From Escherichia coli (lineage in GTDB: Bacteria; Pseudomonadota; Gammaproteobacteria; Enterobacterales; Enterobacteriaceae): a DNA stretch of 64,000 nucleotides. Position numbers and translations under genes: made by a program. Positions 29,488-33,342 of this stretch are shown here, piece by piece. Within the stretch, counting starts at the first letter, position 1. Every line of letters starts with the position of its first letter. Where the stretch lies: NCBI RefSeq assembly GCF_003334355.1, contig NZ_QOWP01000018.1. The stretch is one strand, 5' to 3'. The notes below the pieces were generated by a model. The model made no database searches. It was not told the DNA's origin and saw only the letters and a program-made list of their open reading frames with translations.

Positions 29488-30663
29488 ATGACAAATCAAC
29501 CAACGGAAATTGCCATTGTCGGCGGAGGAATGGTCGGCGGCGCACTGGCGCTGGGGCTGGCACAGCACGGATTTGCGGTAACGGTGATCGAGCACGCAGA
29601 ACCAGCGCCGTTTGTCGCTGATAGCCAACCGGACGTGCGGATCTCGGCGATCAGCGCGGCTTCGGTATCATTGCTTAAAGGGTTAGGGGTCTGGGATGCA
29701 GTACAGGCTATGCGTTGCCATCCTTACCGCAGACTGGAAACGTGGGAGTGGGAAACGGCGCATGTGGTGTTTGACGCCGCTGAACTTAAGCTACCGCTGC
29801 TTGGCTATATGGTGGAAAACACTATCCTGCAACAGGCGTTGTGGCAGGCGCTGGAAGCGCATCCGAAAGTAACGTTACGTGTGCCAGGCTCGCTGATTGC
29901 GCTGCATCGCCATGATGATCTTCAGGAGCTGGAGCTGAAAGGCGGTGAAGTGATTCGCGCGAAGCTGGTGATTGGTGCCGACGGCGCAAATTCGCAGGTG
30001 CGGCAGATGGCGGGAATTGGCGTTCATGCATGGCAGTATGCGCAGTCGTGCATGTTGATTAGCGTCCAGTGCGAGAACGATCCCGGCGACAGCACCTGGC
30101 AGCAATTTACTCCGGACGGACCGCGTGCGTTTCTGCCGTTGTTTGATAACTGGGCATCGCTGGTGTGGTATGACTCTCCGGCGCGTATTCGCCAGTTGCA
30201 GAATATGAATATGGCACAGCTCCAGGTGGAAATCGCGAAGCATTTCCCGTCGCGTCTGGGTTACGTTACACCGCTTGCCGCTGGTGCGTTTCCGCTGACG
30301 CGTCGCCATGCGTTGCAGTACGTGCAGCCAGGGCTTGCGCTGGTGGGCGATGCCGCGCATACCATCCATCCGCTGGCGGGGCAGGGAGTGAATCTTGGTT
30401 ATCGTGATGTCGATGCCCTGATTGATGTTCTGGTCAACGCCCGCAGCTACGGCGAAGCGTGGGCCAGTTATCCTGTCCTCAAGCGTTACCAGATGCGGCG
30501 CATGGCGGATAACTTCATTATGCAAAGCGGTATGGATCTGTTTTATGCCGGATTCAGCAATAATCTGCCACCACTGCGTTTTATGCGTAATCTCGGGTTA
30601 ATGGCGGCGGAGCGTGCTGGCGTGTTGAAACGTCAGGCGCTGAAATATGCGTTAGGGTTGTAG
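29488..30663 (+). CDS. ubiF: Ubiquinone biosynthesis hydroxylase (FAD monooxygenase)
   Basis: FAD-binding GGGMVG near N-terminus; start at ATG 29488 gives 391 aa. Confidence 0.9.
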   Translation: MTNQPTEIAIVGGGMVGGALALGLAQHGFAVTVIEHAEPAPFVADSQPDVRISAISAASVSLLKGLGVWDAVQAMRCHPYRRLETWEWETAHVVFDAAELKLPLLGYMVENTILQQALWQALEAHPKVTLRVPGSLIALHRHDDLQELELKGGEVIRAKLVIGADGANSQVRQMAGIGVHAWQYAQSCMLISVQCENDPGDSTWQQFTPDGPRAFLPLFDNWASLVWYDSPARIRQLQNMNMAQLQVEIAKHFPSRLGYVTPLAAGAFPLTRRHALQYVQPGLALVGDAAHTIHPLAGQGVNLGYRDVDALIDVLVNARSYGEAWASYPVLKRYQMRRMADNFIMQSGMDLFYAGFSNNLPPLRFMRNLGLMAAERAGVLKRQALKYALGL

Positions 30664-30675
30664 CCTTACAACATT

Positions 30676-30768
30676 GCCGGATGCGTGCCAACCGTAGGTC
30701 GGATAAGACGCGGCAGCGTCGCATCCGACATTGAAGGATAAGACGTGTCAACATCGCATTCGACATTG
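30676..30768. repeat. REP-like palindromic units
   Basis: gccggatgcg...gcatccgaca and a second degenerate unit, read directly. Confidence 0.5.
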
Positions 30769-30785
30769 AATGAACGCAGAAAAGC

Positions 30786-30812
30786 AAAAAGCTCGCCGAA
30801 GCGAGCTTTTTT
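30786..30812 (-). terminator. Intrinsic terminator at the 3' end of the tRNA operon
   Basis: Stem gctcgc / gcgagc, loop cgaa, flanked by A5 and T6. Confidence 0.8.
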
Positions 30813-30816
30813 AATG

Positions 30817-30891
30817 TGGCTGGGGTACGAGGATTCGAACCTCGGAATGCCGGAATCAGAATCCGGTGCCTTACCGCTTGGCGATACCCCA
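30817..30891 (-). tRNA. glnX: tRNA-Gln (anticodon CUG)
   Basis: 75-nt reverse complement ends in CCA and carries anticodon loop UUCUGAU. Confidence 0.9.
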
Positions 30892-30938
30892 ACAAATTGG
30901 TTTTGAATTTGCCGAACATATTCGACACATTCAGAATT

Positions 30939-31015
30939 TGGTGGCTACGACGGGATTCGAACCTGTGACCCCATCATTATGAGTGATGTGCTCTAACCGA
31001 CTGAGCTACGTAGCC
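30939..31015 (-). tRNA. metU: Elongator tRNA-Met (anticodon CAU)
   Basis: 77-nt reverse complement GGCUACGUAGCUCAG...ACCA with anticodon loop CUCAUAA. Confidence 0.9.
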
Positions 31016-31030
31016 AGATTGTTTCTTCGA

Positions 31031-31105
31031 TGGCTGGGGTACCTGGATTCGAACCAGGGAATGCCGGTATCAAAAACCGGTGCCTTACCGCTTGGCGATA
31101 CCCCA
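31031..31105 (-). tRNA. glnU: tRNA-Gln (anticodon UUG)
   Basis: 75-nt tRNA; anticodon loop UUUUGAU. Confidence 0.9.
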
Positions 31106-31128
31106 TCCGTACAACGCTTTCTGGTGAA

Positions 31129-31213
31129 TGGTGCGGGAGGCGAGACTTGAACTCGCACACCTTGCGGCGCCAGAACCTAAATCTGGTGCGTCTACCAATT
31201 TCGCCACTCCCGC
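31129..31213 (-). tRNA. leuW: tRNA-Leu (anticodon UAG)
   Basis: 85-nt type II tRNA GCGGGAGUGGCGAAAUUGG...ACCA. Confidence 0.9.
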
Positions 31214-31221
31214 AAAAAAGA

Positions 31222-31298
31222 TGGTGGCTACGACGGGATTCGAACCTGTGACCCCATCATTATGAGTGATGTGCTCTAACCAACTGAGCTACGTAGCC
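31222..31298 (-). tRNA. metT: Elongator tRNA-Met (anticodon CAU)
   Basis: 77-nt tRNA differing from the 30939 copy by one D-loop base. Confidence 0.9.
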
Positions 31299-31338
31299 AT
31301 CTTTTTTTTCGCGATACCTTATCGGCGTTGCGGGGCGC

Positions 31339-31367
31339 ATTATGCGTATAGAGCCTTGCAGCGTCAA
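31339..31367 (-). promoter_or_regulatory. Putative sigma70 promoter of the tRNA operon
   Basis: On the minus strand: TTGACG, 17-bp spacer, CATAAT, then GC-rich discriminator GCGCCCC; about 35 nt upstream of mature metT; inference only. Confidence 0.4.
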
Positions 31368-31642
31368 CCTCTTTTTCAAGGAAAATTGCTCGAAAGTGAC
31401 TGTTTGGTTAGGTTGCGAACAGCGTGGCGCTATATTCGTCAATTATTGTTTACTTTGTGTTTTTTCCCACCCTACAGCCATTCTTTTGTCATACAGGATG
31501 AAATTCGGAATTTAACAATAGTGGTGGGAAATTAATCTATGAAATACTGGCCTACAGTGATGAGTTGTCAAACAGTGATGTGGCAAACCCGGAACATTTC
31601 CTTACTGCATATCAGAATCAACAAGCACCTCAATAACTGAAA

Positions 31643-31670
31643 CAGCCCCGGATTTCACCGGGGCTGTTTC
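31643..31670. terminator. Bidirectional hairpin terminator downstream of asnB
   Basis: Stem cagccccgg / ccggggctg, loop atttca, U-rich on both sides. Confidence 0.7.
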
Positions 31671-31677
31671 GCATTTC

Positions 31678-33342
31678 TTACTTATACGCCGACTGGTGAA
31701 CACCAACCGCGCGACCAGACGGATCGTCCATTTTCTTGAACGCTTCATCCCATTCGATCGCTTTAGCGGAAGAACAAGCGACGGAAGGACCGCCCGGCAC
31801 GCACTCAGCGGCGCTCGGAAGCGGGAATAGTTCTTCAAAGATCTCCCGATACAAGTACGCTTCTTTAGAGGTTGGCGTGTTGTACGGGAAGCGGAAGCGG
31901 GCAGTTTCCAGTTGCTGATCAGAAACCTGCTGCGCAGCCACTTCTTTCAGGGTGTCGATCCAACTGTAACCGACGCCATCGGAGAACTGCTCTTTCTGCC
32001 GCCAGGCCACGCTTGCAGGCAGATACGCTTCAAAACATTCACGCAGGATGTGTTTTTCCATTTTGCCGTTACCGCACATTTTATCCTGTGGGTTAATACG
32101 CATCGCCACATCAAGGAATTTTTTGTCGAGGAACGGAACGCGTGCTTCCACGCCCCAGGCTGACATCGCTTTGTTGGCACGCGCGCAGTCATACATATGC
32201 AGGGCCAGCAGTTTACGCACCGTCTCTTCATGCAGTTCTTTGGCATTCGGTGCTTTGTGGAAGTAAAGATAACCGCCGAACACTTCATCAGAACCTTCAC
32301 CGGACAGCACCATTTTAATGCCCATCGCCTTGATCTTACGCGACATTAAATACATCGGTGTTGAAGCGCGAATAGTGGTCACATCATAAGTTTCGATGTG
32401 GTAAATCACGTCGCGGATGGCATCCAGACCTTCCTGTACAGTGAAGTGAATTTCGTGATGCACCGTGCCCAGATGGTTTGCCACTTCCTGGGCTGCTTTC
32501 AGATCCGGTGAACCCGGCAGACCTACAGCAAAGGAGTGTAACTGCGGCCACCAGGCTTCAGAGCGTTCCTGATCTTCCACGCGACGGGCTGCGTATTTCT
32601 TGGTGATAGCGGAAATAATTGAGGAATCCAGACCACCAGAAAGCAGCACACCGTAAGGCACATCAGACATCAGATGGCTTTTAACTGAATCTTCCAGTGC
32701 CTGACGCAGCTCGTTTTTGTCGGTCACGTTATCTTTCACCGCATCGTAGTCGAACCAGTCGCGATGATAGTAAGAACGGATTTCGCCGTCCTGGCTCCAC
32801 AAATAGCTCCCCGCCGGGAACTCTTTAATCGTGCGGCAAACTGGCACCAGCGCTTTCATTTCTGAGGCCACATACAGCTGACCGTGTTCGTCATACCCCA
32901 TATACAGTGGGATGATCCCCAGATGGTCGCGACCAATCAGGTAGGCATCTTTTTCGCTGTCGTACAGTGCAAAGGCAAACATGCCCTGCAAGTCGTCGAG
33001 AAATTCCGGCCCTTTTTCCTGATACAGCGCGAGGATCACTTCACAGTCAGACCCGGTCTGGAACTGGTAACGATCGCCATATTCGGCGCGCAATGCCTGG
33101 TGGTTGTAGATTTCACCGTTTACCGCCAGTACGTGGGTTTTTTGTTGGTTGTAGAGAGGTTGCGCCCCCGCGTTAACGTCAACAATTGACAGACGTTCGT
33201 GGGCGAGAATGGCGTTATCGCTGGCATAAATACCGGACCAGTCCGGGCCACGATGACGCATCAGACGTGACAGCTCGAGGGCTTTCTTACGCAGCTCAAC
33301 TGCGTCTGTTTTGATATCGAATACGCCAAAAATTGAACACAT
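31678..33342 (-). CDS. asnB: Asparagine synthetase B (glutamine-hydrolysing)
   Basis: Start trimmed to ATG 33340-33342 (MCSIFGVFD, Ntn Cys2), 554 aa. Confidence 0.95.
   Translation of the reverse strand: MCSIFGVFDIKTDAVELRKKALELSRLMRHRGPDWSGIYASDNAILAHERLSIVDVNAGAQPLYNQQKTHVLAVNGEIYNHQALRAEYGDRYQFQTGSDCEVILALYQEKGPEFLDDLQGMFAFALYDSEKDAYLIGRDHLGIIPLYMGYDEHGQLYVASEMKALVPVCRTIKEFPAGSYLWSQDGEIRSYYHRDWFDYDAVKDNVTDKNELRQALEDSVKSHLMSDVPYGVLLSGGLDSSIISAITKKYAARRVEDQERSEAWWPQLHSFAVGLPGSPDLKAAQEVANHLGTVHHEIHFTVQEGLDAIRDVIYHIETYDVTTIRASTPMYLMSRKIKAMGIKMVLSGEGSDEVFGGYLYFHKAPNAKELHEETVRKLLALHMYDCARANKAMSAWGVEARVPFLDKKFLDVAMRINPQDKMCGNGKMEKHILRECFEAYLPASVAWRQKEQFSDGVGYSWIDTLKEVAAQQVSDQQLETARFRFPYNTPTSKEAYLYREIFEELFPLPSAAECVPGGPSVACSSAKAIEWDEAFKKMDDPSGRAVGVHQSAYK

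Follow-up and report, generated by a model that had tools for sequence, protein, structure and literature searches.

The window, by which we mean the whole 64-kb stretch of Escherichia coli DNA analysed here, contains the metT tRNA operon in which five tRNA genes, all intact, stand between a normal promoter-like site and a normal terminator. Its neighbours are ubiF, which ends at 30663, and asnB; transcription runs towards ubiF, and the flanks match those of annotated genomes. ARAGORN and Rfam both found exactly five tRNA genes at 30817–31298, all on the (−) strand. This agrees with the initial annotation, which had read the span as Gln-CUG, Met, Gln-UUG, Leu-UAG and Met in plus-strand order and had called for a tRNA scan; run with ARAGORN, that scan returned five genes, not seven. 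All five genes scored 57.6–71.1 bits against RF00005, for which the gathering score is 29, placing the array far beyond chance, and ARAGORN found no tRNA genes outside the array in the rest of the 64-kb window.

As transcribed, the order is metT, leuW, Gln-UUG, metU, Gln-CUG, the reverse of that on the plus strand, and each gene was called by ARAGORN and Rfam. The first gene of the operon, metT (31222–31298, (−)), encodes an elongator tRNA-Met (CAU), scores 71.1 bits in Rfam, has the D-loop sequence UUGG and is identical to K-12 metT. It is followed by a single copy of leuW, encoding tRNA-Leu (UAG) (31129–31213, (−)), which is identical to the leuW of K-12 and of the nearest complete genome, PSS-12 (NZ_AP027697.1). 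A single tRNA-Gln (UUG) gene (31031–31105, (−)) then takes the place of K-12 glnU and glnW. Next comes metU, the second elongator tRNA-Met (CAU) gene (30939–31015, (−)), with C for U at tRNA position 17, and last a single tRNA-Gln (CUG) gene (30817–30891, (−)) in the place of K-12 glnV and glnX. Approximately 40 nt upstream of metT is a sigma-70 promoter-like site (31339–31367, (−)) made up of TTGACG, a 17-nt spacer and CATAAT, followed by the G+C-rich GCGCCCCGC. It is the sole promoter-like site within 30600–31700, its position suggests that it functions as the operon’s promoter, and the sequence of the region is the same in the window, in TUM9757 and in two K-12 derivatives (alignment A1). 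Downstream of Gln-CUG is a Rho-independent terminator (30786–30811, (−)) with an 11-bp stem, a GC-rich core and a T run, identical in sequence to that of K-12. Between the ubiF stop and this terminator, at 30664–30785, are REP-like palindromic units (GCCGGATGCG...CGCATCCGAC motifs); the sequence here differs from strain to strain, and many BLAST alignments were broken by it at query position ~314.

The K-12 operon had been given in the initial annotation as having seven tRNA genes with both Gln isoacceptors duplicated, and published descriptions bear this out (PMC6265465, PMC2241853, PMC11480407). The window shares with K-12 the ubiF–asnB position, the promoter region, the terminator and the gene order, and four of its five genes (metT, leuW, Gln-UUG and Gln-CUG) are identical in sequence to their K-12 counterparts. 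It differs in having five genes, with one copy per Gln isoacceptor, where K-12 has seven, and in the U17C change of its metU, whereas K-12 metT and metU are identical (PMC6265465). Alignment A1 and a direct comparison of the sequences showed that the window retains every outer spacer, the promoter region and the terminator. What it lacks is one Gln-UUG unit of 109 nt (a 75-nt gene plus the 34-nt glnU–glnW spacer) and one Gln-CUG unit of 112 nt (a 75-nt gene plus the 37-nt glnV–glnX spacer), the inter-Gln spacers of the seven-gene form being TCTTCTTCGAGTAAGCGGTTCACCGCCCGGTTAT and ATTTATTCAAGACGCTTACCTTGTAAGTGCACCCAGT. On its leuW side the single Gln-UUG gene has the spacer that adjoins glnU in K-12, and on its metU side the one that adjoins glnW. 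Within each K-12 Gln pair the two copies do not differ, and two flanking bases that they also have in common extend the match to a 77-nt perfect direct repeat; in PSS-12 the exact Gln repeats likewise measure 77 nt, spaced 109 nt (UUG) and 112 nt (CUG) apart. Each loss amounts to exactly one repeat unit with breakpoints within the perfect repeats and, since the copies are identical, the breakpoints can be placed only to the inside of the repeat. The window does not have the canonical seven-gene form with tandem Gln pairs; it is a copy-number variant of the metT operon.

The two tRNA-Met genes of the window differ at a single base, gene position 17, which is T in metT (UUGG) and C in metU (UCGG), as the initial annotation had noticed. 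The variant base of metU lies at window position 30999, as G on the plus strand. Among the 5,426 complete E. coli genomes, metU C17 was found elsewhere only once, in PSS-12, and the draft GCA_027353005.1 also carries it. As these assemblies share the variant, metU C17 is a lineage marker, with no bearing on the loss of Gln copies. We considered gene conversion from another tRNA as its source and rejected it, as no other E. coli tRNA is known to have a D-arm that matches across the site; that the variant is common to three assemblies of the lineage also disfavours conversion. It is a simple inherited point mutation. U17 is normally a dihydrouridine, and the change, in the variable part of the D-loop, is probably neutral. 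A second difference lies at window position 30899, in the metU–Gln(CUG) spacer 8 nt upstream of the Gln gene, where the transcribed strand has C in the window and in K-12 and T in PSS-12 and GCA_027353005.1; the window isolate therefore branches outside both of these, within the metU-C17 lineage.

The initial annotation had offered collapse or non-expansion as the origin of the single Gln copies, and the window’s relatives bear directly on this choice. Under non-expansion, the lineage would never have duplicated its Gln genes, the five-gene array would be primitive and the seven-gene array of K-12 expanded. Reference arrays of five genes in the same order do occur, in Morganella psychrotolerans (L042) and in a Pluralibacter MAG (L082). 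The nearest relatives of the window (99.7–99.97% identity), however, are seven-gene. PSS-12 differs from it by 18 SNPs over 64 kb, with the two tRNA units as the only indels, and has a seven-gene metT array. In the two genomes that come next, with 99.8% and 99.7% identity over 25 kb, the matching stretch is longer than the query by exactly 221 nt, and the first of these, PRO_A-1412-6M-A_ESBL, had seven genes when checked. The draft GCA_027353005.1 has the window’s UbiF allele and, like PSS-12, combines this lineage-specific allele and metU C17 with seven genes. Among the 40 genomes nearest to the window over 25 kb there is no five-gene E. coli, and of the complete E. coli genomes 98.5% have the Gln-UUG duplicate and 97.1% the Gln-CUG one. 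Beyond the species, E. albertii has both Gln duplications with an identical glnU–glnW spacer, and Citrobacter koseri and C. werkmanii share both, with spacers whose homology can be recognised, indicating that the duplications predate Escherichia. The seven-gene relatives and the outgroup duplications together exclude non-expansion for practical purposes, and we give it next to no weight. Of the two origins offered, collapse thus stands, in the sense of a derived loss of exact units from an array that is seven-gene in the relatives, and non-expansion falls, given the duplications in E. albertii, Citrobacter and most E. coli. Whatever brought it about, we are highly confident that the five-gene state is derived by the loss of one unit from each Gln pair, and comparison with these sequences places the loss recently, at the very end of a lineage whose arrays have seven genes.

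Two further observations were made in the course of these comparisons. In E. albertii NBRC 107761 (L035), the leuW–glnU spacer is 104 nt long against the usual 23 nt; the normal 23 nt are followed by TGGGG, with which a Gln gene begins, and after that by unrelated sequence, as if a Gln copy had been disrupted or replaced and had left a remnant. In the window itself, 7 of the 18 substitutions relative to PSS-12 fall within the last 800 nt (63197–63995), at the contig end and adjoining an rhsC element. This cluster could be a recombination tract or could stem from mixing of paralogues at the contig end.

We compared copy number across strains, as the initial annotation had proposed. Spacer-specific queries were used to count the duplicates, in place of coverage counting with a 1,101-nt query, which is confounded because BLAST joins pieces of repeated genes and the REP region near ubiF varies. 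The glnU–glnW spacer was present in 5,342 of the 5,426 complete E. coli genomes (98.5%; absent from 84) and the glnV–glnX spacer in 5,268 (97.1%; absent from 158), while in some genomes the inter-Gln spacers reach 3–4 copies, so that expansions occur too. A contiguous leuW–Gln(UUG)x1–metU–Gln(CUG)x1–terminator core was found in 20 of the 5,426 genomes, on several haplotypes. This count was made with a query of 359 nt and an E-value limit of 1e-172, conditions that only the contiguous single-single core satisfies, and the set of 20 includes expanded arrays such as that of TUM2805. The exact five-gene array was found in ~13 of the 5,426 genomes, on at least six haplotypes, a figure read from the one-piece full-length rows of the 1,101-nt BLAST query. 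Examples are TUM9757 (NZ_CP128931.1), ECCTRSRTH03, FDAARGOS_1077, CEA106S, STK39-3-E, IPCEC31 and AVS0543. These genomes share the genes, junctions and flanks of the window, at 97.5–99.9% identity over 1,101 nt, but belong to other lineages, and none of them has metU C17. They are independent occurrences, real or artefactual, and since no five-gene genome is found among the window’s nearest relatives, the form must arise repeatedly. The five-gene form is, in this sense, already known, being present in public complete genomes.

A wider survey took in 94 complete arrays from species-representative genomes of the Enterobacterales and a few relatives. Seven-gene, K-12-like arrays made up 34 of the 94, and six-gene arrays were of two kinds, with Gln(UUG)x2 and Gln(CUG)x1 in 24 and Gln(UUG)x1 and Gln(CUG)x2 in 10. 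The five-gene, window-like form was found in 2, and the remaining 24 had other forms. The metT array belongs to a recognised class of unstable tandem tRNA clusters. An expansion of another sort was seen in TUM2805 (NZ_CP128950.1; L008), whose genome is only 4.09 Mb: at 2536–3586 it has an eleven-gene array, (Met–Leu–Gln(UUG))x3 followed by Met–Gln(CUG), in which a 284-nt Met–Leu–Gln unit is expanded between Met repeats and the Gln copies are single.

Two accounts of how the units were lost divide nearly all of the probability, and any reading besides these has only a very small share. Under the first, the isolate itself underwent a real contraction, through two independent events in its recent ancestry that removed one unit each from glnU/glnW and glnV/glnX. 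Starting from a seven-gene ancestor, one unit per Gln pair would be lost by misalignment of the 77-nt direct repeats, which lie 109 and 112 nt apart, and each event could be either a RecA-dependent unequal sister-chromatid exchange or RecA-independent replication slippage between the repeats. Short tandem repeats often undergo deletion in E. coli, and classical genetics showed unequal recombination in the tandem tRNA duplicates tyrT/tyrV (su3) and supE/supB. The metT array resembles these in its perfect tRNA-length repeats ~110 nt apart, in the loss of one unit and in the presence of expansions in the population; the likeness here, however, comes from anatomy and population counts. Exact unit losses with breakpoints inside perfect repeats are what such a contraction would leave. 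The array also varies in both directions within E. coli, as the spacers missing from 84 and 158 genomes and present in 3–4 copies in others, and the eleven-gene array of TUM2805, attest. The ~13 complete genomes with the exact five-gene array, spread over at least six haplotypes, and the variable Gln copy number among the 94 species-representative arrays also speak for this account, and a five-gene operon keeps every anticodon and all signals. The loss of a redundant tRNA copy is costly in rich media and can help in poor ones (PMC9981150), and the contracted form would be a transient polymorphism, with a mild cost in rich medium and possibly a benefit in poor medium. Against a real contraction, two events would have to have taken place within a lineage only 18 SNPs per 64 kb away from PSS-12, and an independent double loss is expected in only ~0.045% of genomes. 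Moreover, the sequence comes from a draft contig, every other lineage assembly that could be checked has seven genes, and some of the supporting “natural” variation is artefactual or clustered by sequencing project. We put the chance of a real contraction a little short of even.

Under the second account the contraction is a collapse by the assembler, and the isolate may carry seven genes. In a short-read de Bruijn graph, each tandem Gln pair would form a loop that the assembler could skip, in which case the isolate may really hold the full seven-gene array. The skipped loops, at <200 nt, would be left out of a submitted assembly. The window matches the draft WGS contig QOWP01000018.1 (GCA_003334355.1; 84,865 nt) at 100% identity over 9,176 nt and makes up its terminal 64 kb, window position 64000 falling on the last base of the contig. 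In the 64 kb of PSS-12 the only exact direct repeats of >60 nt are the two 77-nt Gln repeats. The window has each of these in one copy only, keeps the 60-nt Met repeat, and there are no further repeats of >40 nt in the region. An effective k of ~61–77 in the assembler would give exactly this pattern. A draft contig in which both 77-nt repeats are collapsed and the 60-nt one is resolved resembles short-read de Bruijn collapse of tandem repeats; the array did, however, come through intact in other drafts of the lineage. The same threshold would, however, also be expected from recombination that depends on repeat length and distance, and a Met–Met deletion would remove the essential leuW and be non-survivable.

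A hint at the level of reads comes from Logan, which uses k=31. Logan contigs with the lineage’s UbiF allele stop exactly 30 nt into Gln-CUG, a point at which a k=31 graph branches only if there are at least two Gln-CUG copies. These stops would hint at assembler collapse if the runs include the window isolate. Products of ORFs spanning the junction of a single Gln-CUG (53 aa and 115 aa) gave no record on look-up, a result that is uninformative.

Several observations count against assembler collapse. A genuine deletion predicts the identical sequence, and apart from the missing units the consensus is clean, being free of indels relative to PSS-12 across 64 kb. The array was resolved in most drafts of the lineage (L129), so that collapse is not the default outcome. 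Single-copy states are seen on several haplotypes among complete genomes, and elsewhere in the Enterobacterales they are the reference state; the five-gene set decodes every codon, which makes the configuration viable. On balance, we put the chance that the window’s contraction is the work of the assembler at about one half, and would regard collapse as at least as likely as a biological deletion, and slightly the likelier of the two.

The population counts contain a signal that touches both accounts. If the losses of the two spacers were independent, ~2.4 single-single cores would be expected (84 x 158 / 5,426), and 20 were observed, an approximately eight-fold excess. This excess points to pipeline effects or correlated biology. 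Nine of the 20 single-single cores come from the GF-series of chicken-meat strains, which belong to one sequencing project. The same series (CP1721xx; hits H50–H59, H76, H80, H86–H89, H93, H96 and H99) contributes a large share of the variant metT arrays, in five-gene, six-gene, Met+Gln-only and expanded forms, and this concentration suggests a pipeline effect rather than biology. Were the double contraction real and the eight-fold excess biological, the metT array would act as a reversible dosage dial, moving between five and eleven genes by repeat misalignment; we consider this unlikely. Selection for balance of the two tRNA-Gln isoacceptors after one contraction is one possibility for how biology might produce the excess, and selection for lower tRNA-Gln dosage in slow-growth niches is another.

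Complete genomes that lack an essential tRNA show that collapse at this array does happen. According to PMC11480407, the metT transcription unit holds all of the elongator tRNA-Met genes, all of the tRNA-Gln genes and the only tRNA-Leu(UAG) gene of the cell, and leuW and glnUW are among the predicted essential elements of this undeletable unit. We found leuW in 5,414 of 5,426 complete E. coli genomes; the other 12, “complete” in RefSeq, are without any tRNA-Leu(UAG). In the MC1061 assembly (NZ_CP195014.1; L136), only Met and one Gln gene are found at 1818–2016, the latter being Gln-CUG by its ubiF-proximal position. As an MC1061-type set lacks the only decoders of CUA and CAA, a collapse between metT and metU is almost certain for the leuW-less assemblies. 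Draft contigs of species-representative genomes, for their part, were seen to end in the array or at its edge in many cases (L010, L024, L026, L028, L066, L073, L078, L083, L088 and L104), and two of these contigs, L073 (276 nt) and L104 (323 nt), consist of array fragments only. Short-read assemblers, it appears, commonly fail at the metT array.

In K-12, RNase E removes the terminator from the transcript and RNase P then separates the tRNAs (PMC2241853); with the promoter-like site and terminator unchanged in the window, we infer the same RNase E/RNase P processing. A real contraction would halve the dosage of Gln genes from four to two, because all E. coli Gln tRNA genes are in the metT operon, and would leave that of Met and Leu unchanged. 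A smaller share of the tRNA pool for tRNA-Gln would then be expected, with a small cost in rapid growth, judging from PMC9981150, a study of tRNA genes other than those for Gln. The finding has little biological weight in itself, as the operon, its canonical seven-gene form and repeat-mediated change in tRNA copy number are textbook knowledge. It does carry a caution, that tRNA gene counts at the metT locus are unreliable when taken from drafts and from some “complete” assemblies.

Annotation can distort such counts as well. THB42-F1 (NZ_CP104326.1; L002) would be a six-gene form according to its annotation, which we rejected on alignment, as this gives seven genes, one of them with a CTA anticodon. 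The gene concerned is the promoter-distal Gln gene, which at column ~786 of alignment A1 has CTA in place of CTG; it is an amber-suppressor allele of the supE44 kind, left unannotated by the RefSeq pipeline. Because this Gln gene is skipped, annotated tRNA counts under-report such strains.
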